A program made the position numbers and the translations under genes. A DNA stretch of 48,335 nt from a virus (Duplodnaviria; Caudoviricetes), in IMG/VR virus record IMGVR_UViG_3300014202_000218, positions 1 through 48,335 of that record; one strand, 5' to 3'. Shown in pieces: positions 279 through 46,100 of this stretch (the stretch's first letter is position 1; each line of letters opens with the position of its first letter). The notes under the pieces were generated by a model. It was not told the origin of the DNA, did no database searches, and saw only the letters and a program-made list of their open reading frames with translations.

Positions 279-755
279 ATAGAATAGACACACGAATAGA
301 GTGAATACGGCTATAGAATCTGGAGTGTTTCCAGATAGAGTAATATACCACTAGAGAGGGTGCTAGGGTATATGGTTCATACTCGGAGCCGTATTCATTC
401 TGTTGGGATGTCTAGTCTATAGGACGGCTCACGAAGATTGAGTAATGAGTCTAATAGCTTATACGCACTAGATATACCCTATAGGGAGGTATCATCATGC
501 GGTGTTACTAATGGCCTGCAAGTATAATGAGCTAGAATAGAGGACCGGATAAATCCTTAGACAGACAAAACTGGATATAGGCTGGATAGGATTAGGGTCA
601 TATAGAGTATCGGCTATCTCATTCTATTCAGCCATATCTGGAACGCAGACATTTGGATAGAGTGTATAATAAGCTATCTCACAGAGAAGATAAGCTGGGT
701 TATATATCTTCCTAAAAAGAGATGTAGATATTATGCACTCTATCGAGGTGTCTGT
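279..755 (+). ncRNA. Highly structured non-coding leader with long G-U-containing stems
   Basis: Stems about 279-312/388-420, 573-596/617-639 and 646-670/730-755, with internal hairpins; mismatches are G-U compatible on the + strand. Confidence 0.55.
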
Positions 756-980
756 ATGAAGATGAAGGTAAATCATTTAGGTAGGATAGACAACATAGAC
801 AACGTTAGTCAAATCATTCACAATACTACAAAGGATAGGCTTCTAATTGTAGAAGAGGAAGATAAAGGATACCAAATACACGGTTACATTTCTTCTGAGA
901 TAGCCGACATCGAGGTAACATTTCCGGAGTACGATAATGAAGAAACGTTCACTTCTAATCCTCACACTAGCGGTAAGTAA
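756..980 (+). CDS. Hypothetical protein
   Basis: 74-aa ORF at the start of a tightly packed + strand gene run. Confidence 0.6.
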   Translation: MKMKVNHLGRIDNIDNVSQIIHNTTKDRLLIVEEEDKGYQIHGYISSEIADIEVTFPEYDNEETFTSNPHTSGK

Positions 981-1248
981 CACTATCGCCTGTAGTGGAG
1001 GTAATAGCATTCTCTCTCCATCTACAGGAGAGGGTAATGGTAGAACGGCTGTAGAGATAGAGCATAGCGAGACTCTACCTCTATCTATTATAGAGCCGTC
1101 TTACCTATGCTCAGAACGAGAAGCGTATCTCTCTGAGTATCTCTCTAGACCTACGGATGGAGTGATTGTTACTCTACCGTCGGGGGAAAAGGTATACATT
1201 GACTGGCTTGGACGTGTATATCACATCGAAGGACCGGAGTGTCAGTAA
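937..1248 (+). CDS. Putative lipoprotein
   Basis: MKKR, hydrophobic stretch, lipobox-like TIA-C, then Ser/Gly/Pro linker. Confidence 0.6.
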   Translation: MKKRSLLILTLAVSNTIACSGGNSILSPSTGEGNGRTAVEIEHSETLPLSIIEPSYLCSEREAYLSEYLSRPTDGVIVTLPSGEKVYIDWLGRVYHIEGPECQ

Positions 1249-1403
1249 TGACTTACCTAGAGTGGATTGAAAAGCTCGAATCAATTAGAATGCAATACTT
1301 AGAGGGAGCTATTACTGAGCGTGAGTTCTTCAATGCAACAATAGCACGAGCTATTGAAGTAGAGCAGACTGAAGAAGATACACAATTAGAGGAACCTAAG
1401 TAA
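1248..1403 (+). CDS. Hypothetical 51-aa protein (not in ORF track)
   Basis: TAATG-coupled start; MTYLEWIEKLESIRMQYLEGAITEREFFNA...; fills the gap between neighbouring genes. Confidence 0.7.
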   Translation: MTYLEWIEKLESIRMQYLEGAITEREFFNATIARAIEVEQTEEDTQLEEPK

Positions 1404-1406
1404 GAA

Positions 1407-2198
1407 GTGAAACTCTCACTCAGCACTGACGGTCGTATCATAGGATATGACTGTATTCAGTGCAGTAGTTACAATGACATTCTCTCTGTCTATTGTCACT
1501 ACTGTTCTGCATACAGAGATGCAGGTATATCATATCGTGAGATTGAATGGTATACAGCCGTTCGGCGTGACGTTCACTTAGACTACAATCCACGACCCAT
1601 CTATCCGAGTAAAATGACAAACGAAGATAGAGTCGAGTTATACAAGAAGTTCTATGATGGTGCTGCTCTAAAGGTAGCATCTATGACTCTAGATCAACTC
1701 ATTGCACGAGGCGATGAGCTAGAGGAAATAATCATAGAAGCTAAAGCAGAGGCTCAGGCTACAACGGCTGAGCGTAGGAAACGAGAGGCTAATCTTTCAC
1801 GTTCTGAGAGAGAGAAGCTAATCACTAAACCGGATATTACTGGAACTGAGGCGCTTAACGGCCCAAAGGTTCGTAAAGATAGGATGTCTAAAGCGGATAA
1901 ACTCCGTGAGACATATGTATCTTTGGGTATGTCCGAAGCTGAAATCAATGCTATTATGAAGAACATTAGTGTTGATGAAACGAAGAAGAAAGCTCCTGAA
2001 GTAATCAAACGGCTCGGCGCTACAGACTCGAAGGAACGTTATACCTTTACGAAAGACGAACAGAAAGGTGATATCACTAGAGAAGTAGAACCTACAGTAG
2101 AACAGTCTATTGATAAGACTATCTCTGAGGCTCAGTCAGAGGGAGATATTCCAAAGCCTAAGATGGACTTCTCAAAGCTCTCATTCTTGAAGAAGTAA
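1407..2198 (+). CDS. Hypothetical protein with N-terminal CxxC pairs and coiled coil
   Basis: 263-aa ORF with CIQC and CHYC motifs. Confidence 0.75.
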   Translation: MKLSLSTDGRIIGYDCIQCSSYNDILSVYCHYCSAYRDAGISYREIEWYTAVRRDVHLDYNPRPIYPSKMTNEDRVELYKKFYDGAALKVASMTLDQLIARGDELEEIIIEAKAEAQATTAERRKREANLSRSEREKLITKPDITGTEALNGPKVRKDRMSKADKLRETYVSLGMSEAEINAIMKNISVDETKKKAPEVIKRLGATDSKERYTFTKDEQKGDITREVEPTVEQSIDKTISEAQSEGDIPKPKMDFSKLSFLKK

Positions 2199-2205
2199 TA
2201 AGACA

Positions 2206-3810
2206 ATGACTTCTACTACTACACACTATATCTGCCCTAAATGTGAGGCAGATTCTGTAGAGAAATCTCGCGTGAAGTTTGGCGAGAAAGTAATCGTATC
2301 TCTACTGTGTGGTCATGTAGTCCCTGAGACGGCTCTTATTCCGCTACGGGATAAGGGCTATTCACTACTTCACTCTCTCGGATACAGAGATTATCAAATT
2401 GAGGGAGTGAAGTTTGCTGAAGAATCAAGAACTACTATCGGTGGTAAGGAAGGAATACGCTGCCTTATTGCCGATGAGCAAGGATTAGGCAAGACGTGGC
2501 AGGCATCTGGAGTAATTGCACTTCATGATGATATGTTTCCTGCCATTGTCGTAACTAAGACTACACTGACTATTCAGTGGTGGCATGAACTCCGGCGTTT
2601 AGTGGGTCATGATAAGACATATCAGGTCATTCGTTCTGGGAAGGAAATGGCTATCCCGGGATTTGATGTATATGTCCTGACGTATGACCTACTAAAGAAA
2701 CACGAATTCATATTTGCTCTACTCGGAGAATACCCTAAGACTCTGATTCTAGATGAATGCCAGTCTATTAAGAACCACGCATCCGGCCGTGCTGGAGCCG
2801 TCTACGAGGTAGCTGATAAGGCATTCAATATTATTGGTCTATCAGGGACTCCGATTAAGAATCATGCCGGAGAGTATTTCTCAATCCTGAATATCCTCCG
2901 GCCTGATATCTTCTCTAGCTATGACCGTTACGTAGATGAGCACTGTGATTTCTACGATACGGCATACGGTAGGAAGATTGGTGGATTGAAGAATCCGGAC
3001 CTATTCCAGGATCTTACGAGAAAGTTTATCATTCGTCGCACTAGAGCAGAGGCTGCACCTGAATTACCTACGATGGAGAGAGTATTCCATCACGTAGAAC
3101 TCTCGAAGAAGCTTCAGTCTGCATATAAGGACGCTGTTAAAGAACTCGAAGAACTCCTATATGCAGAGCAAGATGAGGACACAATGTCCAATATGCTTGC
3201 TATCTACGCTAAGATGCGTAAGATTACCGGCTTATCAAAGGGTGCTCTAGAGTGTGTGGATTATGTTACGGATTTCCTCTTATCCACAGATAGGAAGATT
3301 GTTATCTTTCTTCATCATCATACTGTGGCTACTTTGTTGGAGGCTAACCTTAATAAGTGGTTATCGGATGGTGGATACAGACCTATTCTGAATCTACACT
3401 CTGGACTCTCTGGAGAACAGAGAGCAGAGACAGTAAGGAAATTCAGAGAAGAGCCGTATAGAGTAATGATTGCATCTACTCTTGCGGCTGGTGAAGGATT
3501 GAATCTTCAGTTCTGTTCTGATGCTATCATGCTGGAGAGGCAATGGAATCCAGCTAATGAGGAACAAGCAGAGGGTAGATTTATTCGACTGGGACGAGCT
3601 TCAGATGCCGGTCCTGTAAGAATGATTTACATGATTGCATCTGAAACTATTGATGAATACTTCACTGAGCTTGTAGAATCCAAGAGAGCAATCATGGCAT
3701 CTACACTAGATGGTAAGGATATATCATGGGATCAGACTTCACTGATGAAAGAACTAGCCCAAGCAATCGTATCCAAGGGCAAGACAAAGTGGACGATGAC
3801 AAAAGGGTAA
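2206..3810 (+). CDS. SNF2/SWI2-family helicase (HARP-like) with N-terminal Zn ribbon
   Basis: LIADEQGLGKT, LILDECQ, LSGTPIKN, AAGEGLNLQ, WNPANEEQAEGRFIRLG motifs. Confidence 0.93.
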   Translation: MTSTTTHYICPKCEADSVEKSRVKFGEKVIVSLLCGHVVPETALIPLRDKGYSLLHSLGYRDYQIEGVKFAEESRTTIGGKEGIRCLIADEQGLGKTWQASGVIALHDDMFPAIVVTKTTLTIQWWHELRRLVGHDKTYQVIRSGKEMAIPGFDVYVLTYDLLKKHEFIFALLGEYPKTLILDECQSIKNHASGRAGAVYEVADKAFNIIGLSGTPIKNHAGEYFSILNILRPDIFSSYDRYVDEHCDFYDTAYGRKIGGLKNPDLFQDLTRKFIIRRTRAEAAPELPTMERVFHHVELSKKLQSAYKDAVKELEELLYAEQDEDTMSNMLAIYAKMRKITGLSKGALECVDYVTDFLLSTDRKIVIFLHHHTVATLLEANLNKWLSDGGYRPILNLHSGLSGEQRAETVRKFREEPYRVMIASTLAAGEGLNLQFCSDAIMLERQWNPANEEQAEGRFIRLGRASDAGPVRMIYMIASETIDEYFTELVESKRAIMASTLDGKDISWDQTSLMKELAQAIVSKGKTKWTMTKG

Positions 3811-3938
3811 AGATTCCTACTGAATGTATGTCTACAGGATATGCGCACTGTGGGCATTATCCCTGCATTCAAGGTAATATCTGCTGCATGTGTGGAGGGG
3901 ATAGATACGTATATGAACAAAAGATTGGAAGTTCTTAA
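3789..3938 (+). CDS. Small Cys-rich hypothetical protein
   Basis: GTG start near the helicase stop; C/H-rich (CGHYPC, CCMC). Confidence 0.4.
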   Translation: MDDDKRVKIPTECMSTGYAHCGHYPCIQGNICCMCGGDRYVYEQKIGSS

Positions 3939-4101
3939 CGGCTCTATCTCTTTACACCAGGTATCTCGTATCTACGTAGGTGGTAAATATGAGCGCCGAA
4001 TGTTCCTCTCATGTCAGAATGAACGAGAGGTTGCTGACATGAGAGTGAACAATGAGCAGATAGAAGAACTGATTAAGATGTTACAGGAGGCTATTAAATG
4101 A
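3913..4101 (+). CDS. Hypothetical protein
   Basis: ATG 3913 after GGAGG; overlaps the next start. Confidence 0.6.
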   Translation: MNKRLEVLNGSISLHQVSRIYVGGKYERRMFLSCQNEREVADMRVNNEQIEELIKMLQEAIK

Positions 4102-4280
4102 ATATATCTGAACAATTGCACAATGACGCTGAAAAACAGTTAGATACCATAATCTCTTTTGCTAATGAAGTAGAGGAAAACTTTCGCCTCAAGCGGTATG
4201 AAGATGCCTCGTGTACTCTTGATGAGTTAGAAAGTGAAGTAAAGAAAGCTAAGAAGTTAATCGATCAGATGTGGGAATAA
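4098..4280 (+). CDS. Hypothetical helical protein
   Basis: AGGAGG RBS, coupled start. Confidence 0.7.
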   Translation: MNISEQLHNDAEKQLDTIISFANEVEENFRLKRYEDASCTLDELESEVKKAKKLIDQMWE

Positions 4281-6343: not shown

Positions 6344-6550
6344 ATGCCTAAAGGTATTGTTTATATAGATGAAGAGACTAGTGACGAAATGCATGGAGAA
6401 TGTCTCCTAGATAATGAGATGGTTATTACCAAAGATGAAGCATCCGAACTCTTATACGCCATGAAGAATCATTGGATTGAACGGATCGAGCCACATTACT
6501 CCATCATGAGCCAGTTGTTGAAGAAGCTACGAGAGTTAGCGTATGACTGA
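6344..6550 (+). CDS. Hypothetical protein
   Basis: 68-aa ORF with G-rich RBS. Confidence 0.65.
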   Translation: MPKGIVYIDEETSDEMHGECLLDNEMVITKDEASELLYAMKNHWIERIEPHYSIMSQLLKKLRELAYD

Positions 6551-7467
6551 TGTGGAATTCATATGAAATTTACAGTATCAAAGGTATCATAAAAGTGGAT
6601 ATCATAAAAAGTCCTAAGATTAATTATGTGTTTGATGCCACGATGTTCGATACATTCTTGGATTGTCCACAGAAGTTTAATCTAAGGCATATTCAGAATC
6701 GTGTTACACCTGAGAAGCAGAAGCCGCTCGATCGTGGTGGTATTATGCACGTAGGATTTGAGTCTTACTATAAGGCTCTAGCTGAGGGTAAGAAGTGGGA
6801 AGATGCGATTACGGCTGGACTAGTAGATATGAGGTTTGGTCTGGCTTCAGACTCTGACCTCTCTACTGATGATGGTAATCGTTGTCTTGAAGTATTTGAA
6901 GAGTCAGCTACCTTTTGGCGTGCTGATGATTTATCATGGGAGATTGTTGCTGTAGAGAAGCCGTTCTTGTACGTACTCTATGAGGATGATACATTTCGTA
7001 TTGCTATGATGGGGAAGATTGACCTTCTCCGTTCTAACAATAGATATACGAACTGTCCTATGGATCATAAGACGTATGAGAGAGACTTCCCAGTAACACG
7101 GCTGACGAATCAGTTTCAGAACTATGCTTTCGCTACGAAATCAGATTACCTATTCGTGAATCGGGTAGGATTCCAGACATCGCTGAAGTCAGAGAAGAAG
7201 CATAAGAGGATTCCACTATCCTACGACGCAGCTATTCTATCTCAGTGGAGAACGAACGTCATTCGTTGGGTAATGCACTATCATGACTGCGCCGTGTCAA
7301 ACGAGTGGCCTTTGAATACTACGTCATGTGGCAAATACAATCGTCTTTGTGAGTATCATGGTATCTGTGATACATCAGGAGAAGAGAATAAGATCTACAA
7401 ACTAGAGACACAGTTCAGGAAAGATACTCCTTGGGATGTCTCTTATGTTCTCTCGAAGAAGGGGTAG
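6550..7467 (+). CDS. PD-(D/E)XK Cas4/AddB-like exonuclease with Fe-S Cys cluster
   Basis: DCP at N-terminus, G...H, VE, GKIDL, DHKT, QF..Y, C-terminal C..YNRLCEY..IC. Confidence 0.88.
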   Translation: MWNSYEIYSIKGIIKVDIIKSPKINYVFDATMFDTFLDCPQKFNLRHIQNRVTPEKQKPLDRGGIMHVGFESYYKALAEGKKWEDAITAGLVDMRFGLASDSDLSTDDGNRCLEVFEESATFWRADDLSWEIVAVEKPFLYVLYEDDTFRIAMMGKIDLLRSNNRYTNCPMDHKTYERDFPVTRLTNQFQNYAFATKSDYLFVNRVGFQTSLKSEKKHKRIPLSYDAAILSQWRTNVIRWVMHYHDCAVSNEWPLNTTSCGKYNRLCEYHGICDTSGEENKIYKLETQFRKDTPWDVSYVLSKKG

Positions 7468-7470
7468 GGT

Positions 7471-7734
7471 ATGCACCGTAGAGATTTTCTACGATATCTA
7501 TTATCCTCAGCCGTTGCGGCTACAGTAGATGTAGAGAAACTATTATGGGTACCAGGAGAGAAGAAGATATTTGTTCCTTCTCCTAAACAAGTAGAGTTAT
7601 TTGGTATACCATATCATCAGTCTAATGCACACACTGGGACGTGGTTAGGTATAGAGCGTAGTATATATCCTTGGTTTAGGTCAAATGAAGATGCCAAAAG
7701 ATACTCTAAGAGCCTGGAACTTCCCAAACGGTAG
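7471..7734 (+). CDS. Small protein with twin-arginine-like N-terminus and a copy of a major-capsid segment
   Basis: MHRRDFL leader; LFGIPYHQSNAHTGTWLGIER matches capsid LFGVPYHNSNASTGTWLGLDR. Confidence 0.8.
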   Translation: MHRRDFLRYLLSSAVAATVDVEKLLWVPGEKKIFVPSPKQVELFGIPYHQSNAHTGTWLGIERSIYPWFRSNEDAKRYSKSLELPKR

Positions 7735-7976: not shown

Positions 7977-8420
7977 ATGGCAAAATCTCTTACGCCCAGA
8001 CCGCCTAAGCATATACATAAACTTAAACGCCACAAGTACTCTAATGGCGAGGAAGTATATTTTTGTATGCTACCTCGGTGTAGGTTTAAGGTTATTACTG
8101 CTATGGCTCTTGGTGAGGAATCAATTTGCCATCGCTGTGATAAGCCTTTCATCATGAACGAGATTACAATACGGCTCTCTAAACCACATTGTAGTCTCTG
8201 TACCGTGAGAAAAGGTAATAAAGAGGATATTACACCAATACTAGACGTAGCCGTATCTACGATTCTACCAGAGCGTCGACGTTCTACTCTTATACAAGAA
8301 GGAGATCATGTCTCAGACCTCAGGTCAAGACTCTCTAGGGTTAAAGGACAAGATACTGTACTACCTGATTCTACTCTATCATCATCTGAGGGACTTCCTC
8401 CTGATGAGGATATGGTGTAG
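7977..8420 (+). CDS. Zn-finger protein
   Basis: HxH, CMLPRC, CHRC, CSLC; GAGG RBS. Confidence 0.75.
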   Translation: MAKSLTPRPPKHIHKLKRHKYSNGEEVYFCMLPRCRFKVITAMALGEESICHRCDKPFIMNEITIRLSKPHCSLCTVRKGNKEDITPILDVAVSTILPERRRSTLIQEGDHVSDLRSRLSRVKGQDTVLPDSTLSSSEGLPPDEDMV

Positions 8421-8631
8421 ACACGAGGACGTAGTTAAAACTCATAGAGACAACAAGGTTTTTACCTTCTGTACACACTGTGGATACGAGAGTCCAGGAA
8501 TAACGTTAGAGAAAAGGTTTACATATAATGCCCCGATCAGCAGAGAATATTCAACCGGGATCTCTAACAGGGAACCCATCATTTCTATTCAAGAGTTCAC
8601 CAGGCGGAGGAAAAACTCTCGCGGCTTGTAG
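8308..8631 (+). CDS. Small Zn-binding protein (start uncertain)
   Basis: WCRH...CTHCGYESPG motif bridging the 8420-8528 gap; overlaps both neighbours. Confidence 0.45.
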   Translation: MSQTSGQDSLGLKDKILYYLILLYHHLRDFLLMRIWCRHEDVVKTHRDNKVFTFCTHCGYESPGITLEKRFTYNAPISREYSTGISNREPIISIQEFTRRRKNSRGL

Positions 8632-9367
8632 TGCGGCTATATTCGGTAGGGTATATCTTGCTTACTTTGATAAAGCAGAACCTATTGAACTAGCCTGGCT
8701 GCGAGAGTATCGTCCTGAACTTTTGAAACTTATTGATTGGGACCCATATTCCTCCGTCAATGCTCATGAGTATATTAATTTCCTCCGCCGTCTAGCAGAT
8801 AAGGGCAACCCATATGCAGCCGTTATCACAGACAGCGTGACATTCATGACATCTGCAGCCGTTAACTGGTCTCTCTCATTCAGACCAGAAGCTAAAGATG
8901 CACGTGGTACTATTGCTCTGCCAGACTTTGATGATTATAAGACTGAAGCGTCTTATGTATCTCAAGCTCTGGATATCTGTAAGGGTCTAAACTGTATTAA
9001 TATCTGGACCGCTCATCCGATGCCTCGCACTAAGATTGAGGCGAACGGCTCCAAGATTGGAAAGGTTACAACTCACGAGACTCTAGTATCTTACGGCACT
9101 AAAGTAGGAGCTATGATTGCTGGTGGGTTTCAAGAGATCTACCATTTCGGTAGACAGGGCAACGATAGAATAGTCTATACTGATGCAGTAGGCGATGATT
9201 ACGCCAAGACTTCAATTAAACTACCGAAGTCATTCAATATCACGAATAGACTATTCTTCGAGGTCTGGAAAGAGTACACAGACAAAGCAAAGGAGGAAGC
9301 TGATAAGGGAAACTTCAATCCATTCAAGGACCATGTAACGGAAGCATCTGCATCACGTTGGGAATAG
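8528..9367 (+). CDS. P-loop ATPase, AAA_24/Sak4-like recombination protein
   Basis: SSPGGGKT Walker A, VITDSVT Walker B, WTAH; lies between the exonuclease and the SSB. Confidence 0.8.
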   Translation: MPRSAENIQPGSLTGNPSFLFKSSPGGGKTLAACSAAIFGRVYLAYFDKAEPIELAWLREYRPELLKLIDWDPYSSVNAHEYINFLRRLADKGNPYAAVITDSVTFMTSAAVNWSLSFRPEAKDARGTIALPDFDDYKTEASYVSQALDICKGLNCINIWTAHPMPRTKIEANGSKIGKVTTHETLVSYGTKVGAMIAGGFQEIYHFGRQGNDRIVYTDAVGDDYAKTSIKLPKSFNITNRLFFEVWKEYTDKAKEEADKGNFNPFKDHVTEASASRWE

Positions 9368-9408: not shown

Positions 9409-9852
9409 ATGCCTTTCGAAGCCGTTGTTACTCCCGATGACCTCAAAAAGGGCGACCTCGTTCCGGCTGGTTGGTATCCAGCTAAGATTGAGGAATACAA
9501 GGAAGAGATTACCAAGTCTTATGGTACGGCTGGTTCTCCTAACTATAAGCCTTCTGATGGTAGCACCAATTGTATTTTCAATCTGAAGCTTATCGAGCCG
9601 TCTGCCTATAAGGGTGTCTCGCCTCGTGTTCAGTATAATGAGAAAGCTCTTGGTTATGGCAAGAGTCTTTGGGAGGCTGTTGGTATTCCCTTTGATCCTG
9701 AGAAGGGATACAAGCTCAGCACCGCAGTCTTCAATAAGATGCCTGGTATGAATGTGGATGTCTATATCAAGCGCGGTGTCTCTTCAAATCAGAAGGAATT
9801 CAATGAGGTTGTTGAGTTCCGTAAGTTCGGCACTGGCAAGTACACGGCGTAG
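9409..9852 (+). CDS. Putative single-stranded DNA-binding protein (DUF669-like)
   Basis: LVPAGWYPAKI N-terminus, NEVVEF near C-terminus; follows the ATPase; strongly biased codons. Confidence 0.7.
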   Translation: MPFEAVVTPDDLKKGDLVPAGWYPAKIEEYKEEITKSYGTAGSPNYKPSDGSTNCIFNLKLIEPSAYKGVSPRVQYNEKALGYGKSLWEAVGIPFDPEKGYKLSTAVFNKMPGMNVDVYIKRGVSSNQKEFNEVVEFRKFGTGKYTA

Positions 9853-10687: not shown

Positions 10688-10942
10688 ATGGTAAAGAAAA
10701 CCTGGCAAGAGAGGTCTCAGGAAACGGCTGAATACCACAAAAGAAGAGTACGTGAAAAGCACCCTGAGTATCACTCGATTCGAGATACGGCTGATGAACT
10801 ACGTCGTTCTGTTGGTTCCATTACTGAGGATCTTATTCTTGATTCATGGATGAAAACGCACCCTAAAGTAGAAGAAATGCCATTTGCTTACCAAGCCTTA
10901 GAATTTATTAGGGACAAAAAGAGAGAGCTGAGATTACGATGA
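10688..10942 (+). CDS. Putative HTH DNA-binding protein
   Basis: SIRDTADELRRSVGSITEDL HTH-like pattern. Confidence 0.6.
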   Translation: MVKKTWQERSQETAEYHKRRVREKHPEYHSIRDTADELRRSVGSITEDLILDSWMKTHPKVEEMPFAYQALEFIRDKKRELRLR

Positions 10943-12289: not shown

Positions 12290-12521
12290 GGACTATACAC
12301 ATATTCGGTTCCCTGCGCACTCTCTACCTGGAATAGTTACTAGAATATGTGGCGTAACTGAGGGTGAATCTATTAGCTTTGAGCATTATGGAGAGAGGCA
12401 CATCAAGCCGGCAATATTAGGACAACTAGAACGGCTCCCATATCCACTATGCACAGACTGTATAGAGATATGTAGAGAAGCTTCTGATACAACTATATGC
12501 CCAACAGAGTCAACGGAATAG
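12219..12521 (+). CDS. Small Zn-binding hypothetical protein (start uncertain)
   Basis: H...ICG...LCTDC; fills the gap before the polymerase. Confidence 0.5.
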   Translation: MLDKPSSEVSLSEEIVPDKTSSPKDYTHIRFPAHSLPGIVTRICGVTEGESISFEHYGERHIKPAILGQLERLPYPLCTDCIEICREASDTTICPTESTE

Positions 12522-15040
12522 GTCCCCTAAATGCTAAACTGATGATAGTAGGGGAAGCTCCAGGTAGGGCCGAAGATGAGACTGGCACTCCATTTGTAGG
12601 CCCAAGTGGTGAGATATTAGATGATCTACTCAGCCGTTCTGGTATCTCTAGGTCGGACGTATATATCACTAATGTAGTGAAGGTACGTCCACCTAATAAT
12701 ATCTGGGAAGCTCTCCCCTCTATCGGCATATCAGTACAAGAGGAGACACAGAAGCTATGGGAATTTGAGATAAACAAGATCCAACCCAATGCCATACTAG
12801 CCGTTGGCGATAAAGCCCTTACTGCCCTAACAGCAGAATCAGGAATAACCAACTGGAGAGGCTCTATTATACAGGGGAGGGATGGAATACAGAAGGTAGT
12901 TGCTACACTACATCCTGCTGTTCTATTCCCTCACCCCGGTAAACCAGCTTGGCCCTGGGTCTGGAAACGGCTGATAGAGAATGATGTACGTAAAGCAGTT
13001 CGTCAATCAACGTTTAAAGGATTCAATCTCCCTGAACGTACTCTTACAGTAGCACATAGCTATCATCAGGTATACAAGTTCTTTCAGGAATACCGTCTCT
13101 GTAAGAAAGCAGCTAATGACATAGAGTCAATTAATTCAATACCTGTATGTACTGGATTTGCATTCAATAAACATCACGCTCTATCCATTCCTCTTCTACA
13201 TAAGGCAGGTAAGAATCGTCTATCTGATATGACAGCTCATGAGGTAGCCCAGTGCTGGAAACTCATTCAGGAGGTATTTTCCACTGGCCTAGGTATCATT
13301 GGTCATAACTACATGTATGATGAGTTCAAACAAAATCTTCTTGGATTCCATGAGATTAACTGCGTATCCGATACGAAGCTCAAGGTTCATACTATATTCC
13401 CTGAACTCCCAGATAAAGACCTAGCTACCTGTCTCTCACTCTGGACTGACGAGCCGTTCTACAAAGAGGAAGGCAAAGAGCCAAAGTTTGGCCTGTTCAA
13501 CGTAGAGAAATTCTTCAAATACAATGCAAAAGACTGTGCTGCTACATTTGAACTTGACGAGGAAATGGAGTGCTCTCTTCAGGCTCTTGAGGATAAGCTC
13601 CATATCCCTCTGCGAAAATTCTATTACGACTATGTCATGCGGAAGCACGGATTCTACCTCCGCATGGCTAACAACGGCTTCCGTGTTGATCACAGACAAA
13701 AAGATATTCTTAAAGGTGCGTATGAATACCTTAGAGAAGTTGCCCATGAACATCTCGTCTCCCTCATAGGCACAGAGATTAATGTAAAGTCCGCTCCTCA
13801 GATGAAGAAGCTTCTCTATGAGGATATGGGCTTTACTATGCCTAAGAAGTGGACACCGAACGGCCAGATAGATAAAGATGGTGCTACGTCTGAAGATCAA
13901 ATCATCAATCTCATTAACGTACATTGCCGCTCTGGCCCTAACGTTAATCTGAAACGCTCTATTCTCGAAGGTATTCTACAAGAAAGGAGAATCAGGGATC
14001 AAATCTCTCGTGCTCTAGATTTTGTCCCTGACTATGATGGCCGCTGCAAAACATCGGTTAACATTGTCGGAACGGAGACTGCAAGAACTAGCACAGGAGT
14101 TCTCAAGAAACCCGTCAGACCTAAAAAGATTGGTCTTGGATTCCATACCATACCTAAACACGGACGACTTGCTAGAGATATCCGAAGCATGTTTATCCCA
14201 GATGAGGGCTTTGTTTTCATTCAAGGTGACCTCTCGCAAGCGGAAGCGCGGATAGTAGCCGTTCTGGCAGAGGATTGGGAGTTACTAAAAGCCTTTGATA
14301 TCATAGACATCCACCGCAGGACGGCTGCCATATTCTTTGGGTATACTAAGAATCTTGTTCTTACACCGGATTTCATTAAAGGTGTAGATGACCTAGAGAA
14401 AGATGGAGCAGAGCGTTATACTGGTAAGACATTCCGCCATGCTGGTAACTATGATATGGGCAAGCATACGGCTATGGTTAACTACAATACCAATGCCCAG
14501 AAGTATGAGATCAACACGGTCATATCCGAGTATCGCGCTGGAGAACACATTAGGAAATTCCACGAGGCATCTCCTAATATTAGAGCCGTCTTCCACCGAG
14601 ATATTCGTTTAGCTCTAGATTCGTCTCGTATTCTCATCAACCCATACGGACGCCCTAGAGAGTTCAATGGTAAGTATGAAGATGATCTATACAAAGAAGG
14701 ATTCGCACAGATACCACAGTCAACAGTAGCAGATACTACCCAGTCAGCCGGTATCTCAGCATGGGATGAATGGGGTCATGATTCACGTATTGCAATGTTC
14801 ATGTCAGAGAATCACGATGCTCTTGTGGCACAGGTACCGCTGAACGGCTGGAGAGATTATGCTAAATCACTCAAGCGACACATGGAAAGGGATATTGATT
14901 TTTCCACTTATTGTACTCTTCGCAGAAATTATACACTTCGTATCCCCGTTGATATTGAAGTATCTATTAACCCTTCTACGGGCCGAGTAACAAACTACGG
15001 CGAACTCACGAAGTGGACTAAGATAAAGGAGGCTGCGTGA
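12497..15040 (+). CDS. polA: Family A DNA polymerase with N-terminal family-4 uracil-DNA glycosylase domain and 3'-5' exonuclease
   Basis: GEAPG..E...G.PFVG, NVVK.RPP.N, HPA (UDG); DIE, GHNYMYD, YNAKD (exo); TARTS, DLSQAEAR, RYTGKTFRHAGNY, NHDAL (pol motifs). Confidence 0.95.
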   Translation: MPNRVNGIGPLNAKLMIVGEAPGRAEDETGTPFVGPSGEILDDLLSRSGISRSDVYITNVVKVRPPNNIWEALPSIGISVQEETQKLWEFEINKIQPNAILAVGDKALTALTAESGITNWRGSIIQGRDGIQKVVATLHPAVLFPHPGKPAWPWVWKRLIENDVRKAVRQSTFKGFNLPERTLTVAHSYHQVYKFFQEYRLCKKAANDIESINSIPVCTGFAFNKHHALSIPLLHKAGKNRLSDMTAHEVAQCWKLIQEVFSTGLGIIGHNYMYDEFKQNLLGFHEINCVSDTKLKVHTIFPELPDKDLATCLSLWTDEPFYKEEGKEPKFGLFNVEKFFKYNAKDCAATFELDEEMECSLQALEDKLHIPLRKFYYDYVMRKHGFYLRMANNGFRVDHRQKDILKGAYEYLREVAHEHLVSLIGTEINVKSAPQMKKLLYEDMGFTMPKKWTPNGQIDKDGATSEDQIINLINVHCRSGPNVNLKRSILEGILQERRIRDQISRALDFVPDYDGRCKTSVNIVGTETARTSTGVLKKPVRPKKIGLGFHTIPKHGRLARDIRSMFIPDEGFVFIQGDLSQAEARIVAVLAEDWELLKAFDIIDIHRRTAAIFFGYTKNLVLTPDFIKGVDDLEKDGAERYTGKTFRHAGNYDMGKHTAMVNYNTNAQKYEINTVISEYRAGEHIRKFHEASPNIRAVFHRDIRLALDSSRILINPYGRPREFNGKYEDDLYKEGFAQIPQSTVADTTQSAGISAWDEWGHDSRIAMFMSENHDALVAQVPLNGWRDYAKSLKRHMERDIDFSTYCTLRRNYTLRIPVDIEVSINPSTGRVTNYGELTKWTKIKEAA

Positions 15041-15898: not shown

Positions 15899-16348
15899 AT
15901 GCTACAGCCAAACTATGTAGAGAGTATTAAATCTAAGCTACTACTTAACAAGGTAGTAGTTAATGACTGCTGGTTGTGGAAAGGTAAATATGGGAGACAG
16001 TGGATAGGAATAGATTATAAAACATACTTAGTTCATAGAGTATCTGCCTCCATATTCCTCGGTATGGATTTAGATTCACATGAATTAGTATGTCACAAGT
16101 TAATATGCCCAAACCCTGGTTGTTATAACCCTGATCATATCTATATTGGGGATACTTCAACCAATACTATAGATGTGGTTAAATCTGGTAAGTACAGGAA
16201 TGGGAATACTAACAAAACAGTATGTAAATGCGGCAAACCATATGACTCTTATACGATAAGAGCAAATGGCAAGATATGGAGAATATGTAAATCATGTAAG
16301 AATGAATCAAATAGAAAGTTGAGGCGTAAAAATAATGCTTCAACCTAA
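15899..16348 (+). CDS. HNH homing endonuclease
   Basis: CWLWKG, VHRVS, VCH..CPNPGCYNPDH, N..D, C-terminal CKCG...CKSC. Confidence 0.9.
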   Translation: MLQPNYVESIKSKLLLNKVVVNDCWLWKGKYGRQWIGIDYKTYLVHRVSASIFLGMDLDSHELVCHKLICPNPGCYNPDHIYIGDTSTNTIDVVKSGKYRNGNTNKTVCKCGKPYDSYTIRANGKIWRICKSCKNESNRKLRRKNNAST

Positions 16349-17588
16349 TTATGTAGATGATGTACTCGAGGAATGTAACGATGTGGAGACACCTCGGGAT
16401 TGGATATACTGGAGTCTAATATGTACGATAGCTGCCGCAGCGGGTAGTGACTATTTTCTTGTTGCCTTTAATGGGAAGGTAACGTACAAACCAAATATCT
16501 ACACTATACTTATGGGAGAATCAGGATTAGGTAAGCAGTTTCCTGTATCTCTAGCTAAGAATCTTGTAGACCGTTCCGATACAACTCGTGTTATTTATGG
16601 ACGTTCATCCATTCAGGCTATAGTCAATGACATCTCCAAAACCAAACAACGAGAGCGTGGAAGTACTATTATGGATAGTCGTTGTTTCATTGTCAATGGT
16701 GAATTGTCTACTGCCATTATACAAGATCCACAAGCACTCACCATTCTTACTGACATCTACGATCCTCACACTAAGTGGGATAACACCCTTAAAGGAGATG
16801 GGTCAGGGGAAAAAGAGACTCTTACTGATCTTGCTACTACTGCTTTATTTGGCACAAGTCCATCTCACTTCTATGATTCTATCCCTCAAGTGAATATTGA
16901 AGGTGGATACATAGGCCGTAACCTCGTAATACGAGCAGAGAAACGCTACAAAGACCTTGATATGTTCTCAGATTCAGATGATGCTACTGACTTCCCATAT
17001 GCTAAATACGTAGAACACTTAGTAAAGATAGGCCAATCTGGTGGAAGGATGATACCAAATGCGGATGCTAAAGAGGCTATTAACTCCTTCCGCCGTAAAT
17101 GGAGACAAGAGCAGAGGGAAGATACAGTAGGATTCCTGAATCGAGTACCAGATCATATCATTAAAGTAGCCATGTGTCTCTGTCTTGCAGACTATGACTC
17201 GTATCGTACTCTCGTTATAAACCAGTCACATATTGAAGAAGCTATAGAAAAGGTTCTCCCATTAGCCCATACTACGAGGACAGTAACAGCAGGCTTAGGT
17301 GAAGATCCTATAGCTAAGCATACACGAGCCGTTATTGATTTTCTCATCAAGGCTCCAGAGCATAGACTCACTAGACGCCAGCTACTATCTAAGGGTTATG
17401 GAAACTATGATGCACCTGTTCTAGATCGTGTCTTAGCTACCCTTAATGAGGTAGGCTGGATTGAGACTATGCGTAAGATTGAATCGGGTTCTAACACTGA
17501 AGTAGAAATATCTCTACGAGGAGAGCCATTGAAGCAATACAATGATTACTTAGAGTCTCGTAAGAAGAAGGGAACGGCTAATGAGTAA
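16335..17588 (+). CDS. DUF3987-like AAA+ replicative helicase with C-terminal winged helix
   Basis: PNIYTILMGESGLGK, ELS, LFGTSP, GGYIGRNL, R....IKVAM. Confidence 0.8.
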   Translation: MLQPNYVDDVLEECNDVETPRDWIYWSLICTIAAAAGSDYFLVAFNGKVTYKPNIYTILMGESGLGKQFPVSLAKNLVDRSDTTRVIYGRSSIQAIVNDISKTKQRERGSTIMDSRCFIVNGELSTAIIQDPQALTILTDIYDPHTKWDNTLKGDGSGEKETLTDLATTALFGTSPSHFYDSIPQVNIEGGYIGRNLVIRAEKRYKDLDMFSDSDDATDFPYAKYVEHLVKIGQSGGRMIPNADAKEAINSFRRKWRQEQREDTVGFLNRVPDHIIKVAMCLCLADYDSYRTLVINQSHIEEAIEKVLPLAHTTRTVTAGLGEDPIAKHTRAVIDFLIKAPEHRLTRRQLLSKGYGNYDAPVLDRVLATLNEVGWIETMRKIESGSNTEVEISLRGEPLKQYNDYLESRKKKGTANE

Positions 17589-17826
17589 CGCTAAACTCAC
17601 CGGCCGTATTAAGAAGCCTAACAGCCGTGGATTCGGATTCATTGAGACGGCTGAAGGAATAGACTTCTTCTTCCACTATTCATCCTTCGATGGAGACTGG
17701 AAGAAGATGCTATCTAGTTACCTCGCTAATAATAACCTCGTGGTAGAGTTTGAGAATGACCCTACTACGATAGATGGACCTAAAGCTAAAAACGTTAAGA
17801 TTATAGGAACGGAGTCAGACCGATGA
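17581..17826 (+). CDS. Cold-shock domain protein
   Basis: RGFGFI (RNP1), FFFHYS (RNP2), GPKAKNV. Confidence 0.88.
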   Translation: MSNAKLTGRIKKPNSRGFGFIETAEGIDFFFHYSSFDGDWKKMLSSYLANNNLVVEFENDPTTIDGPKAKNVKIIGTESDR

Positions 17827-18023
17827 TGAAGGGTAAAGTTAAGAATCTTAAGCCGGAACAGAACTTCGGGTTTATTCGTGGAGAGGATGGTCAAGAGTAT
17901 TTCTTCCATCGCTCTGCTGTTGTTGGGGATTATTATGACTCTATGGAGAAAGGATCTCCTGTAGAGTTTGAGGGTGAAGATACACCTAAAGGGCTTAGAG
18001 CAGAGCAGGTTATTCTACTCTAG
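17823..18023 (+). CDS. Cold-shock domain protein
   Basis: KGKVK, FGFI, YFFHRS, VEF, PKGLRAEQV. Confidence 0.92.
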   Translation: MMKGKVKNLKPEQNFGFIRGEDGQEYFFHRSAVVGDYYDSMEKGSPVEFEGEDTPKGLRAEQVILL

Positions 18024-41519: not shown

Positions 41520-42262
41520 TAGTGTACCAAACCTCTTAGAGCACCACCACAACACCTAGAACTACCACCTCCACCTACTGTACCTTGAAAAGCTACTAAG
41601 TCTAATACAGTATCTTCGTTTGCAGAGCTTGTTAAGTTCCAAGCTTCAGTTACAGTGGTACCTGTTACAATACGGTACGACCATCGCATTGTACCGTTAG
41701 TTTCCTGCCCAATGTTTGTGAAACTTCCATCATCAGTCCATATTGCTGAACCAGTTGTATTACTAAGTAAACCAATTAGGATAGTTTCATTTACTGTCGT
41801 AACAACATCTGTAGAACTATGCGTCGTTGTAGCACTTGTAGTATTCGTTGCGCTGTCATCTATAACAGTCGGGTCTGGCATACCAGCCAATTCAATGGCT
41901 TGAGTGAAATCTCCATCAAATGTGCTGCCAGAGAGTGTAACTGTAATATTGGCTGTTGGGGTAGAACACACCCTCGAATACATATACCCATCAATGCCAC
42001 CCTGTTGAGAGGCACGTTGAGTCATTGCATCCGACCCTAATACTACTGATGTAACAGTACGTGTGTTATGAGTGGATGTAAATACAACAATAACCGTATT
42101 ACCAGTCGTACACGAAGAAGAGAATGAGTGAGTATTTACTCCAGCCGCATAAATAACTCCATCTTCAGCCGTTGAGGTCTGAACAATAGTTACTGCTGCA
42201 CTAGAGTAATTTGGCGCACTAAACAGCAGTAAAGCTACAACTAGAGCTTTAATACTGCGCAT
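41519..42262 (-). CDS. Signal-peptide protein, Thr-rich beta domain
   Basis: MRSIKALVVALLLFSAPNYSSA|AVTIVQ. Confidence 0.7.
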   Translation of the reverse strand: MRSIKALVVALLLFSAPNYSSAAVTIVQTSTAEDGVIYAAGVNTHSFSSSCTTGNTVIVVFTSTHNTRTVTSVVLGSDAMTQRASQQGGIDGYMYSRVCSTPTANITVTLSGSTFDGDFTQAIELAGMPDPTVIDDSATNTTSATTTHSSTDVVTTVNETILIGLLSNTTGSAIWTDDGSFTNIGQETNGTMRWSYRIVTGTTVTEAWNLTSSANEDTVLDLVAFQGTVGGGGSSRCCGGALRGLVH

Positions 42263-43790
42263 AAGTCACTTCACCGTTTATCTGAATGGCTCCGGAAGTC
42301 TCAATACAAAGAGCGTCAGCAGCATCAGTTTTAGTAATCATTCCAAGACCAGAACCACGAGATACGCCTAAAAGACCAGTAGTAGTAGAGAATGCAAATG
42401 TACCAGTAACAGACTCTTCATCAGTAGCACAAGCCGTTCCGGTGCCCTTTACTAGTCTTACATCTACAGTAGCCTCAGCCGTAATCACATAAGAGCAAAC
42501 GTATATGGTAGTCGTGCTAGAAATAGCTACAAGTTGAGTGTTGCCACTAGCAGCCGTATTAATAATAGCAACGTTATTACAAGCTACTCCTGGAGAAATT
42601 GCAATTCCATTTGTATCGACATTTAGAATTTTAAGTGAACCTTTTGCATCAAGCTGAACATCACCTCTATCACCGTCATCAAGGGTAATAGGAGTAGCAT
42701 TATACCTACCACCAACCTTTACTGGATTCCCGGAGTCAGCACTATTATTGGCTATACCTCCACCAGTAAGAGTTGTAAGAGTAGCTACGTTCCAAGTACC
42801 AGACTGAGTTGCTGGAAATGTACCGCCAGTACCAGTAACAAGCCATGCAGTTGTATTAGCCGTATTCCCAGGCTGAAAAGTCCACGTTCCACTCTGAGCA
42901 GCTTGTGTAGCAAACGTACCAGCATTAGTTACAGCATGAGATGGAACGGAAGCTAGTGAAACAGGAAGAGTAGTAATAGCCGAAGAACCATCAGAGAGTC
43001 TAACAAATGCTGGAGTCCCAACAGGAGCATCAACAGTAAGTGAGCCACTATTGTCAGTGATTGGAATTGCTGACTGATTTGATGCAATAGTAACTGGGAG
43101 AGAAGCAGACATTGTAGTCTGCCCAAAGGTCAATCTTGCCCATGCAGAGCCATCATGAATAAAGTTCAGGTTATTAACCGTGTCACTCGTCTGACCCTGA
43201 GCAATAGTAGCAGCATCAGCATCAGTATTAGTAGCACTAGCAGTAACACTACCACTAATAATATCTACCTGCACCTCAGTACCAGCAACGGCACCTGCAA
43301 GTGTAGCAAGATGAGTAGTCTGGTTCTGTTGTTCAGTAAGAGATGCGTCTCCACCACCAGTAATAGAAGCAGTAGAACGAAGTGGTGCCGAGCCTCTCAG
43401 TACCTTATAGGTAGCATTACCACTAATAGCACTCGCTCTTATACGTACAAACTTATATCCAGGATTGGTAAAGAACTTCGGAGAGACATCTGCAGTAGTA
43501 GATGATGCACCATCAACATCATCTATTAGAGCCGTCCACGTTCCAGTGGTAAGAGACGTAGCATCAAGGCTATACTCAAACTGAAACGTTCCAGACGTAC
43601 CAATATCAATAATAATACCGATAGAAGGAATACCCTTCATATCAATGAGCTCAGAACAACGCGTGCTAACACTACAATCAGCACCAGCCGTTGTAATGGA
43701 GCCTTCTTTTATTGTCTGGGCGCTTAGTCCAGAGACGGCTAGAAGGCTAAGTGCTATAGCTACAACTGATATCTTCATCTTTTTTATCAT
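42249..43790 (-). CDS. Signal-peptide fiber/spike-like protein
   Basis: MIKKMKISVVAIALSLLAVSGLSA|Q; QSGTW repeats; jelly-roll-like terminal domains. Confidence 0.7.
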   Translation of the reverse strand: MIKKMKISVVAIALSLLAVSGLSAQTIKEGSITTAGADCSVSTRCSELIDMKGIPSIGIIIDIGTSGTFQFEYSLDATSLTTGTWTALIDDVDGASSTTADVSPKFFTNPGYKFVRIRASAISGNATYKVLRGSAPLRSTASITGGGDASLTEQQNQTTHLATLAGAVAGTEVQVDIISGSVTASATNTDADAATIAQGQTSDTVNNLNFIHDGSAWARLTFGQTTMSASLPVTIASNQSAIPITDNSGSLTVDAPVGTPAFVRLSDGSSAITTLPVSLASVPSHAVTNAGTFATQAAQSGTWTFQPGNTANTTAWLVTGTGGTFPATQSGTWNVATLTTLTGGGIANNSADSGNPVKVGGRYNATPITLDDGDRGDVQLDAKGSLKILNVDTNGIAISPGVACNNVAIINTAASGNTQLVAISSTTTIYVCSYVITAEATVDVRLVKGTGTACATDEESVTGTFAFSTTTGLLGVSRGSGLGMITKTDAADALCIETSGAIQINGEVTYAQY

Positions 43791-43809
43791 TATACTCTCT
43801 CTACCAATC

Positions 43810-44352
43810 CTATCCAACAAGAATAGTCTCGTAATCCCTCTCACTTCGGAGCGGCTGGACTACTATCTGAACCATTGTCTTAGGCCCAGCCTCTTCGTCC
43901 TTACCCTTCTTCGTATCCTTGAGATTAGATGCTATCTTAGACATATCTACAGCTAGTTTAGAGAGGTCCTTTAGTTTTATATCCCTGACTCCCTCTCCAG
44001 TAATCCTAGGCTGGATGGCCTCTATCGACTGCATCATTACATCAAGGGCTTTTTCATGAGCCGCATCAATAGTTCTCTCTACCGATGTAATATCCCTCAG
44101 CCGTTCGTCTAGTCTATTCCCCACTAGACCTTTACTGCTCTTAGATACCGTCGCTTGACTTATCTCTAGAGCCTCCGACACATCCTTCCCACTCTCACCC
44201 ATATTAGAGAGCCGTCCTGCCAGTGCTCTAACACTATCAGGAATCTCACTTCCACCTTCTGGCCGTCCTGGCCTAGCACTCTTTACTATTACATGGACAA
44301 GATTATCCTGACTATCCATCCGCCCAAACAATTCGTCGTCCGATAGTATCAT
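43810..44352 (-). CDS. HTH protein, candidate terminase small subunit
   Basis: SGKDVSEALEISQATVS HTH, helical oligomerisation region; first late gene. Confidence 0.55.
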   Translation of the reverse strand: MILSDDELFGRMDSQDNLVHVIVKSARPGRPEGGSEIPDSVRALAGRLSNMGESGKDVSEALEISQATVSKSSKGLVGNRLDERLRDITSVERTIDAAHEKALDVMMQSIEAIQPRITGEGVRDIKLKDLSKLAVDMSKIASNLKDTKKGKDEEAGPKTMVQIVVQPLRSERDYETILVG

Positions 44353-44411
44353 AATCTTACCCACTTAATACTACATGCTAGCAACGTTCTGACACACCTA
44401 GCCGATGCACT

Positions 44412-44422
44412 AGCATACCACA
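44412..44422 (-). promoter_or_regulatory. Extended -10 element upstream of the late operon
   Basis: TGTGGTATGCT on the - strand; resembles TGTGGTATACT at 75-85. Confidence 0.4.
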
Positions 44423-44815
44423 AAACGGTAACATTTTACCCACTGTTTTCCTAGGGATTCTTCACCTTCCGAACACCTCATCTATTGAGTACGCTCAGAT
44501 TCTGAACATACTCTCTTTTTCATTATATTATTCTGTTCTTTCCTAGGTTCTTACTAAATAGGGGACCCTTTTCTAGGATTGATAGGCAGCGGAAGGTTGT
44601 ATCTCAGCAATTATTATGCCAATATGGTACCACAAAATATGGTGTATGGGGTAGGGTGGAACCACTAGGTATAGTATATGAATGGTATCAATACACATTC
44701 GCCTCATGTTCGTATCAATACAATACGGTACTAAGTATATGATAGCAAAGGACTTATGGCTAAGCTCATGTATATCGTATGAGAACAGTGTATATATTAC
44801 GCGTTCCACTATAGA

Positions 44816-44866
44816 ACACACTACATATGGTATGCCTGATTTGAGATACACACTACATATGGTATG
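44816..44866 (+). repeat. Two perfect 19-bp direct repeats, 32-bp period
   Basis: acacactacatatggtatg at 44816-44834 and 44848-44866. Confidence 0.9.
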
Positions 44867-44882
44867 GTTTTCTGAGAAAACA

Positions 44883-44898
44883 TGGCACGGCTGATGCT
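44883..44898 (+). promoter_or_regulatory. Sigma54-like -24/-12 element
   Basis: TGGCACGgctgaTGCT versus consensus TGGCACG-N4-TTGCW. Confidence 0.45.
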
Positions 44899-44944
44899 CT
44901 ATATACTGATGTCGGGAGTTGGTGAGAACAAGGCAGTAGAGGAT

Positions 44945-44973
44945 TTGACATCCTCACTCGATTCTGCTAAGAT
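44945..44973 (+). promoter_or_regulatory. Strong sigma70 promoter P1
   Basis: TTGACA-17-TAAGAT with extended TG. Confidence 0.85.
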
Positions 44974-45050
44974 TCTCTAGTCGGTTGCAAGTAACACTCA
45001 GGTTCCGTTAATTCGGGAGTAGTCCTGAGATAAACGCGAAAGCGGCTGAT

Positions 45051-45079
45051 TTGACAAACGACACGGGAAGTAGTAAGAT
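45051..45079 (+). promoter_or_regulatory. Strong sigma70 promoter P2
   Basis: TTGACA-17-TAAGAT. Confidence 0.85.
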
Positions 45080-45103
45080 AGTCTGGTAAGTCGGAAGTAA
45101 GAC

Positions 45104-45153
45104 ACAAGCAATAACTGACCGCTAGGCGTTATTACTTGTTCGCTCTTTGACAA
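45104..45153 (+). promoter_or_regulatory. Hairpin plus boxA antitermination element
   Basis: acaagcaataac/gttattacttgt stem followed by CGCTCTTTGACAA (rrn boxA is TGCTCTTTAACAA). Confidence 0.75.
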
Positions 45154-45292
45154 TTGAATACTATCAGCGCGATTGCCAGCTAGTATAGGCAACATGCACC
45201 GATAAGACTAGATGATGTTTATCTAGGGATACCGGATAATGCCAACTATACTAATCCAAGATAAGGCGGAAAATGGCAACGTGAGCATAGAA

Positions 45293-45996
45293 GGATACCA
45301 TACTACAGTATCCTATTCTCTATAGAGCTATCCACATAGTAGGATAGCTCTAGTGGTGACACAGTGTGTAGGTAATCAATCCTACGTCCCCTTATAACGA
45401 CAAATCGCCTGAAAGACGGCTAGGTTATAAGCTCGTTAAAATCCACTGTGTTACCTCTTGAGCTATCCTACACAAAGGACGGCTCAATATGATGATAGGT
45501 AACCGTGAGTATCGTGTAAAAGTAGATGCGGGAGTGATTCGTCATATTCCTATCATCAATAACCCTCCGCCTAGTCCAGTGTTTTACTCACTGTTTGAGC
45601 GAAAGGTTACTGGTGAGTATATACAAATTCGCTCCGCAGTCTACACCAGCGAGATGGAGGCGTTCCGAGTCTTCAGGGATGCTATTGCGAAAGCTCCATT
45701 GTCGCTCTCGATACGGAAGGCGAGAGTGAAGCGGAATAGAGCGCAAGGAGTGAGTAGGTTTCGAGGGGAAAGTTATAATGAGTGGCGAGATAGTCCGCTC
45801 AGGGAGAGGGAGAAGCGAGTAGGGAAATTCGACTGGAAGAAAGCTCAAGCCAATGATAAGGATTGAGGTAACAGTCTTGTTAGTGGTTTGGGTGGTGTGT
45901 CTATATCTGATGGTAAAACATCGGGTATGGTGGTAGTGGTGGAGATAGTGGATAGTTCTATAGAGGATAGGATAGTGTGGTGTGACAATGGTATCC
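45293..45996 (+). repeat. Long imperfect inverted repeat enclosing ORF 45489-45866
   Basis: 45293-45335 pairs with 45948-45996. Confidence 0.85.
45489..45866 (+). CDS. Basic early hypothetical protein
   Basis: 125 aa, AAGGA upstream; first ORF after P1/P2. Confidence 0.6.
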   Translation: MMIGNREYRVKVDAGVIRHIPIINNPPPSPVFYSLFERKVTGEYIQIRSAVYTSEMEAFRVFRDAIAKAPLSLSIRKARVKRNRAQGVSRFRGESYNEWRDSPLREREKRVGKFDWKKAQANDKD

Positions 45997-46100
45997 AGGA
46001 CGGCTCTAGGGAGTATTGTAGGCTCTGAAGTGTAGAGCTTATGATACTCTCTAAGACGTCCGCCAATAGATATGATAGTGTGTATGTGTAAGGGAAGAGT

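Follow-up and report, generated by a model that had tools for sequence, protein, structure and literature searches.

The phage genome and its recurrent word

The 48,335-bp stretch of DNA analysed here (the window; 43.2% GC) is the whole record of an uncultured phage, podovirus-like by a capsid match (E 7e-9) that falls below the curated cut-off, with rightward early genes and leftward late genes. The early genes code for an SNF2 helicase, a PD-(D/E)XK exonuclease, Sak4, a dNMP kinase, a polymerase of the UDG-PolA type, an HNH protein, a DUF3987 protein and two cold-shock proteins (Table 1), and no match to an integrase, RNA polymerase, methyltransferase or primase was seen among the window's proteins. 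Throughout this genome the word AGCCGT, or its complement ACGGCT, occurs on either strand at roughly seven times the expected frequency, and this confirmed excess proves to be one instance of a set of words that follow the early genes across a family of related phages.

An excess beyond codon usage

The first copy of AGCCGT lies at 307 and the last at 46000, with 134 in total, or about one per 345 bp; a first-order Markov model predicts 12.2, making the word the top-ranked hexamer of the window (z 35). A first-pass annotation of the same DNA had counted 29 copies by hand up to 10 kb and 56 up to 18.1 kb, both of which are exact, against a background of 3–4 per 10 kb, where base composition gives 3.5. 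It had also placed the word in several frames, on both strands and in non-coding DNA, and this is borne out by the enrichment of all six frame/strand classes (5, 13, 31, 43, 13 and 22 against 0.9, 1.7, 2.4, 9.9, 1.4 and 1.7 expected) and by eight copies lying wholly or partly outside open reading frames (ORFs). Of the two variants that it regarded as common, AGCCGC is indeed enriched (40 against 12 expected) but AGCCGG is not enriched in the window (13 against 11); AGCCGA is slightly depleted (7 against 15). Copies of AGCCGT in the window tend to be preceded by C or G and followed by C or T.

The 127 coding copies, spread over 67 ORFs, are to be compared with 18.1 +/- 4.1 under a genome-wide synonymous shuffle (maximum 30 in 500 runs) and 23.5 +/- 4.3 under a per-gene one (maximum 35 in 500 runs). 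Since these shuffles keep every protein, and hence every dipeptide, the excess survives the codon- and dipeptide-preserving null under which, according to the annotation, a selected signal should be abandoned if the enrichment vanished. Where the protein sequence permits the word, it is realised at 24 of 67 early antisense, 27 of 67 early sense, 54 of 144 late antisense and 21 of 78 late sense opportunities (64 ORFs), i.e., at 27–40% on either strand. The similarity of these four fractions indicates that there is no real strand preference and that the surplus on the + strand largely reflects how often the proteins permit the word. Likewise, Thr-Ala is written ACG GCT in 43 of 96 pairs, with ACG making up 14% of the other Thr codons; in three relatives without the AGCCGT word, ACG GCT accounts for 4–5% of Thr-Ala. 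Thus, the shuffles, the opportunity fractions and the Thr-Ala codons together reject codon or dipeptide bias as the source of the excess. A longer tandem or dispersed repeat is likewise rejected, as flank conservation ends at about two bases.

Table 1. Features of the window discussed in the text
Feature	Position	Strand	Remarks
AACGGTA(T) repeat array	161..221	+	inverted relative to the array at the other contig end
AGCCGT/ACGGCT, dispersed copies	307..46005	both	82 on +, 52 on -; weaker AGCCGC (40); clade consensus AGCCGYT
Zn-ribbon protein, conserved, family c22	1407..2198	+	precedes the SNF2 gene
SNF2-family helicase	2206..3810	+	N-terminal Cys/His cluster
PD-(D/E)XK exonuclease	6550..7467	+	PF12705
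Zinc-finger protein, family-wide	7977..8420	+	H14, C30, C35, C51, C54, C72, C75 invariant in 52 rows
Sak4-like single-stranded DNA annealing protein	8528..9367	+	phrog_124, E 4e-7
Putative single-stranded DNA-binding protein (SSB)	9409..9852	+	name based on its size and on its place following Sak4; library searches gave no match
ParB/Noc-type helix-turn-helix (HTH), stand-alone	10688..10942	+	84 aa
UDG-PolA polymerase	12497..15040	+	
DUF3987 helicase	16335..17588	+	predicted fold matches MCM
Word-free stretch	46006..48335		2642 bp when joining the contig ends adds 1-306; in the window alone short of significance (P 0.07)
Consensus promoter TTGACA-N18-TATAAT	46888-46917	+	ahead of the c24 gene
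c24, stand-alone acidic protein	46994-47416	+	140 aa
Inverted partner array	48140..48188	-	with the AT-rich contig ends forms a junction found across the family

A family with lineage-specific words

The annotation had proposed repeating the test in relatives. Searches with the terminase, polymerase and SNF2 proteins returned several hundred loci, of which the best 80 per scan were kept, so that the sample leans towards the window. From these, 64 records (the window and 63 others, taken whole or in part) had all 5- and 6-mers scored against codon shuffles, with word labels assigned per record by the analyst, a few of them weak. A lineage-specific word was found in 57 of the 64: an AGCCG-type word in 32 including the window (4 strict AGCCGT, 23 AGCCGY, 2 AGCCGG and 3 broader), CGCGC in 16, and other words in nine (GGCCG in three, and CGCCG, CCCGG, CAGCGC, CATCG, CAAGC and a weak CCGGC in one each). 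The pooled AGCCGY records give the consensus AGCCGYT. Word density stays at 1–6 per kb regardless of GC content, even as the individual sites turn over: only 4 of the 30 window sites that align recur in the relative G014, and 1 of 44 in G015. The word itself can differ between close relatives, such as G051 and G075. Independent switches to one word are represented by G051 and L004 (CCCGG) and by G031 and G055 (AGCCGG). One record, G011 (L367-L369), has a mild excess of both CGCGC (56 against 23) and AGCCG (87 against 52) and is possibly a genome in transition between words.

Taken together, survival under the codon nulls, the bias towards ACG GCT, the turnover of sites at a kept density and the occurrence in relatives make it well supported that AGCCGT is a maintained signal acting at the level of DNA.

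No close cultured relative was found in the phage collection, where polymerase matches stay below 30%. Homologs of the cold-shock and terminase proteins lean towards Acidobacteriota/Chloroflexota-like soil bacteria at 26–54% identity, and the bins containing family contigs are taxonomically scattered. A search of full-text literature, whose coverage leaves out most subscription journals, found no published report of the AGCCGT word or of the phage family.

The word follows the early replication module

In FastTree phylogenies of the 39 genomes holding all 11 genes, the distinction between AGCCG and CGCGC requires a single change on each of the six early trees (SNF2, PolA, helicase, exonuclease, Sak4 and the putative SSB), as against 4–6 changes on each of the five late trees (terminase, portal, capsid, adaptor and tail). 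An approximately unbiased test on an 18-row subset of terminases rejects a single AGCCG clade (p 2e-12). The late genes conform to this pattern. Those of the window hold 118 AGCCG sites against 33 expected, while its head-gene sisters G053 and G023 hold 22 against 34 and 4 against 6; similarly, G038 has 106 against 28, and its terminase sister G005 has 15 against 16. Late genes that have been exchanged thus bear the word that goes with the early module they now accompany.

This link and the conformity of the late genes favour a phage-encoded reader of the word, although a host factor co-varying with the early genes may also play that part. At least seven different words each track an early gene module, which amounts to a natural experiment wherein proteins may be paired with the word of their genome; from its word, a metagenomic fragment can also be assigned to a replication module.

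Distribution of the sites and the contig-end junction

A spacing and strand analysis had also been proposed, and its outcome is mixed. Per strand, even spacing is seen, strongly only on the + strand of the window (coefficient of variation (CV) 0.71; P 0.0008 against a uniform null, z -4.0 against an opportunity-weighted one), with 28 relatives giving a mean spacing z of -0.4 to -1.0 on both strands. Across strands it is absent: merged-strand spacing equals that of a strand-shifted null, so that gaps on one strand are not filled by sites on the other.

The AT-rich contig ends of the window, with their inverted arrays, form a junction that by its layout looks origin-like or packaging-site-like. 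Many relatives keep this layout, a consensus promoter frequently lying some 75 bp to its right, while the repeat units change fast (ATCTGAG in G014, CGACACG in G007, TATGGTA in G018). The resemblance of AACGGTA to AACGGCT raised the idea that the junction repeats and the word are the same signal, which was rejected because G014 combines the shared word with ATCTGAG repeats. Pooled over 14 genomes, word enrichment is 6.2-fold on the + and 4.0-fold on the - strand in the 16 kb to the right of the junction, a difference confounded with coding strand; from -4 to -1 kb the values are 3.8 (+) and 5.2 (-), and from -24 to -4 kb 4.4 (+) and 4.3 (-). Across the clade, the kilobase immediately left of the junction is poor in the word, with 9 sites where 7.4 are expected. 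Overall, enrichment is 5–9-fold near the junction and about 3-fold at the far side, with the proviso that contig ends may not be true termini.

The acidic protein c24 (isoelectric point (pI) 4.8) adjoins this junction, in either orientation. Besides the uninformative HNH, it is the only conserved family whose genes lack an excess of the word (6 sites against 6.6 in 19 genes), the others being enriched 2.2–8.2-fold. In 23 records, c24 holds 10 sites against 12.2 from a shuffle of its own genes and 21.6 from genome density, and the spacer between it and the AT run holds 5 against 18.6. The lack of excess in c24 goes with its GC-rich codons (third-position GC 0.37–0.58, compared with 0.20–0.40), and selection on translation or codons alone may explain it; such codons further suggest a GC-rich host. 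The structural model of c24 (predicted local distance difference test (pLDDT) 94) has its best VIA Z score, 6.1, to helical bundles, and neither the Protein Data Bank nor BFVD yielded a Foldseek match, which does not establish a new fold; neither c24 nor ORF 11477 had a usable match in the Atlas. In other clades c86/c114, c110/c195 and c180 are positional analogues of c24 (hhalign, c180 to c24, 57%).

What might read the word

The annotation had read the excess as a positively selected DNA signal and offered four options: a Chi-like site, a binding site for a coating or protective protein, a priming site, and a self-recognition or modification mark. The maintained DNA signal stands; of the four options priming fits best and a host Chi fits poorly. 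We thus tentatively take AGCCGT to be a preferred primer-start site for a replisome lacking a recognisable primase. This is judged the most likely reading from the link to the early module, the strand-wise spacing, the density kept while sites move, the missing primase, the 5'-NCG-3' end of most words and the precedent of a primase from the PolA family.

As to the missing primase, no match to DnaG/TOPRIM or AEP was found in the 71 ORFs of the window or in 75 proteins of relatives, and among 40 near-complete records there is no conserved unexplained early ORF of at least 230 aa. The PHROG label 'primase' for the DUF3987 protein is unsupported, as its modelled fold (pLDDT 90) is that of an MCM helicase, with MCM chains matched over 340–480 alignment columns. 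DUF3987 has been described as an SF6 helicase in the available parts of PMC11724360 and PMC4889955, the latter noting frequent pairing of such helicases with a primase. UDG-PolAs have likewise been described, the portion of PMC10201439 consulted making no mention of priming. As to the words, most end in 5'-NCG-3' (5'-CCG-3' or 5'-GCG-3') on one strand, and most fit, as a pattern match only, the rule of a central pyrimidine with a cryptic 3' base given in the accessible text of PMC2532735, where the start triplets of Aquifex DnaG are GC-only (CCC/GCC/CGC). The precedent is CCPol-MP, according to the excerpts of PMC7581432 and PMC10061031 a PolA-family primase with a start-site preference.

The replisome in question would consist of the UDG-PolA, the MCM-like helicase and the putative SSB, and AGCCGT would be read on the single-stranded template. 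The reader might be an unconventional priming activity of the phage, made up of PolA and a small partner as in the CCPol-MP of SCCmec, or else a borrowed host DnaG acting with the phage helicase; the family-wide zinc-finger protein is a candidate specificity subunit. Primers would begin with G, as pppGGCU in the case of AGCCGT, and forks restarted by recombination through Sak4 and the exonuclease would need sites on both strands. Chance alone would leave such sites scarce in an AT-rich genome, so we propose that each new site shortening a gap would be favoured. The wider claim, namely that the family as a whole replicates without a conventional primase, its own polymerase module starting strands at a 5–7-letter word whose identity a phage gene sets, such that a swap of the module rewrites the entire genome, borrowed head and tail genes included, is possible but doubtful.

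Several observations weigh against priming. Seven of the 64 records have the same gene set and show no word. Spacing on the - strand of the window is not even (CV 0.94), the evenness in 21 genomes, which being related are not independent, is weak against a uniform null (mean z -0.51 and -0.24, with control words at +0.40), and the 14 genomes do not switch strand cleanly on passing the origin-like junction. In three cultured, distant phages (Vibrio phage VS-ABTNL-3, Microcystis phage Mel-JY34 and Caulobacter phage Kuura) with PolA, a helicase gene of similar size and no primase in the annotation, no word exceeds about 2-fold by count. Further, the known DnaG sites are of three bases, shorter than AGCCGT, and one labelled word (CAAGC, in G068) has no CG. 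Were the priming reading to hold, it would indicate how primers may form in phages that combine a family A polymerase with an MCM-like helicase and have no primase, of relevance to replication biology and primer-free amplification.

The next reading, which we consider rather unlikely, is a Chi analogue encoded by the phage itself: SNF2 and the PD-(D/E)XK nuclease would resect ends, pause at the word and hand single-stranded DNA to Sak4 for recombination-driven replication. It shares with priming the linkage to the early module and the strand-specific spacing, its SNF2, exonuclease and Sak4 genes are present family-wide, and the dispersed sites with their fast turnover would suit it. The sites, however, show no clear end clustering and no orientation bias, their near-saturation of the available opportunities would seem beyond the need of a resection stop, and we know of no phage exonuclease with such word-dependent control.

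Alternatively, the word might be where a phage protein coats double-stranded DNA, whether for protection, for compaction or as a ratchet during entry into the cell, the solo ParB-type HTH and the strongly promoted c24 being the candidates. The absence of orientation preference, the graded flanks, the derivation of the HTH from a ParB/Noc-like protein, and the lack of excess in c24 genes and the spacer to the AT run, as might befit a first-entering segment, all speak for such a coat. Yet it too is unlikely: since the strands space their sites independently, leaving each other's gaps unfilled, an orientation-blind coat is weakened, and the sites of the window give no clear signal of helical (10.5-bp) phasing. 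Five complete CGCGC genomes and G060 lack the HTH, and five of the records with no word have it, which rejects it as a family-wide reader; it could still be a reader inside the AGCCG clade alone. As for c24, its acidity is awkward for a coat, codon selection could account for its exemption, and the CGCGC phages have no word-poor gap of this kind near the junction. Either this or a Chi made by the phage would constitute a new form of self-marking. To mechanisms outside those listed here we assign a small probability.

The same HTH bears on a further proposal, in which a mutation or repair drive tied to methylation (VSP-like or HIP1-like) would repair mismatches near the word towards it, with no benefit per site. 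In eight relatives the HTH forms the middle of a fusion of ParB-N, HTH and an N6/N4 methyltransferase (e.g., L371:11440-12717 and L631:2712-3941, with a degenerate methyltransferase in G068), the HTH alone remaining in most members of the family. These fusions, the presence of CG in most words of a CG-poor genome (observed/expected CG of 0.67 in the window) and the likeness of several words to restriction sites would be in keeping with such a drive. Against it, the 32 AGCCG-type phage records yielded no methyltransferase to a profile of the family's own enzyme, though a host enzyme may act instead; a self-methylation mark likewise has no phage enzyme to make it. Moreover, one-mismatch neighbours of the word are mildly depleted at several positions, no single C-to-T neighbour is prominent across the clade, even spacing is not expected from a drive, and AGCCGT is asymmetric rather than palindromic, although the clade variant AGCCGCT is pseudo-palindromic. 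A repair drive is therefore quite improbable.

Very improbable, finally, is that the word is a host Chi (for AddAB or RecBCD) which the phage amasses to keep the host nuclease in check. In its favour, Chi lies on both strands of P1, host and early module could vary together, and the clade variants AGCGGC and GCGCG resemble the Chi of Bacillus subtilis (AGCGG) and Lactococcus lactis (GCGCGTG) as given in bioRxiv 10.1101/2021.07.08.451572. Against it, the Chi-rich phages covered in PMC12315714 carry sites that are oriented and clustered towards the ends, and most of them are without recombination genes, whereas the window has Sak4 and an exonuclease with unoriented, uniform sites, and the word changes between such close relatives as G051 and G075. 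AGCCGT is unskewed at 1.19-fold in 400 kb sampled from one Acidobacteriota chromosome, which may not be that of a host, and in five Acidobacteriota genomes, again possibly not hosts, AGCCGYT falls below its reversed control.

Other features of the genome and its relatives

Two tandem genes for cold-shock domains (17581-18023), common in the family, close the early region. A small ORF (7471-7734) begins with a peptide resembling a twin-arginine signal and has matches of 31–60% in 22 of 27 relatives, in some of which its homolog lies near the capsid gene. In ORF 46187-46483, tandem repeats of 9–12 bp at 46312-46431 encode a tract rich in Ala, Tyr and His. The window and its relatives avoid GATC, AATT, TCGA, CAGCTG (0 copies) and CTCGAG, with roughly one relative in four almost devoid of GATC and others retaining it. 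An Acb2/Tad1-like hairpin protein (PF24729, E 9e-16) is coded by G046 at L600:3328-3558 in a cluster spanning 18 relatives, and was not seen in the window.

Comparison with known systems

In its genome-wide saturation in all frames, rapid turnover of sites and lineage 'dialects', the word of the window recalls the DNA uptake sequences of Neisseriaceae and Pasteurellaceae and the cyanobacterial HIP1. It differs from them in being shorter and not palindromic, and in belonging to a virulent-looking phage without a matching uptake machinery or methyltransferase. With primase start sites, such as GTC for T7 gp4 and GTT or GCG for T4 gp61, and with CCPol-MP it shares the form of a short asymmetric word that suits the rule of a pyrimidine in the centre and a cryptic 3' base, and the tie to a replication module in which a family A polymerase is joined by a small partner and a ring helicase. 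Unlike primase sites, however, it is of 5–7 nt and fills about a third of the possible sites on both strands; further, no primase gene was found in the window, and its polymerase is a full-length UDG-PolA with a putative priming activity. The Chi-rich phages LLS, MD8 and P1, as far as the available portions of PMC12315714 and bioRxiv 10.1101/2021.07.08.451572 describe them, similarly have a GC-rich asymmetric word beyond codon needs, but at about one site per 2 kb as against one per 0.35 kb; the sites of the window are unoriented and uniform, accompany the phage's own recombination genes, and belong to a word that follows phage genes and switches between lineages. What is distinctive here is a collection of words that switch between lineages and map to a single gene module.

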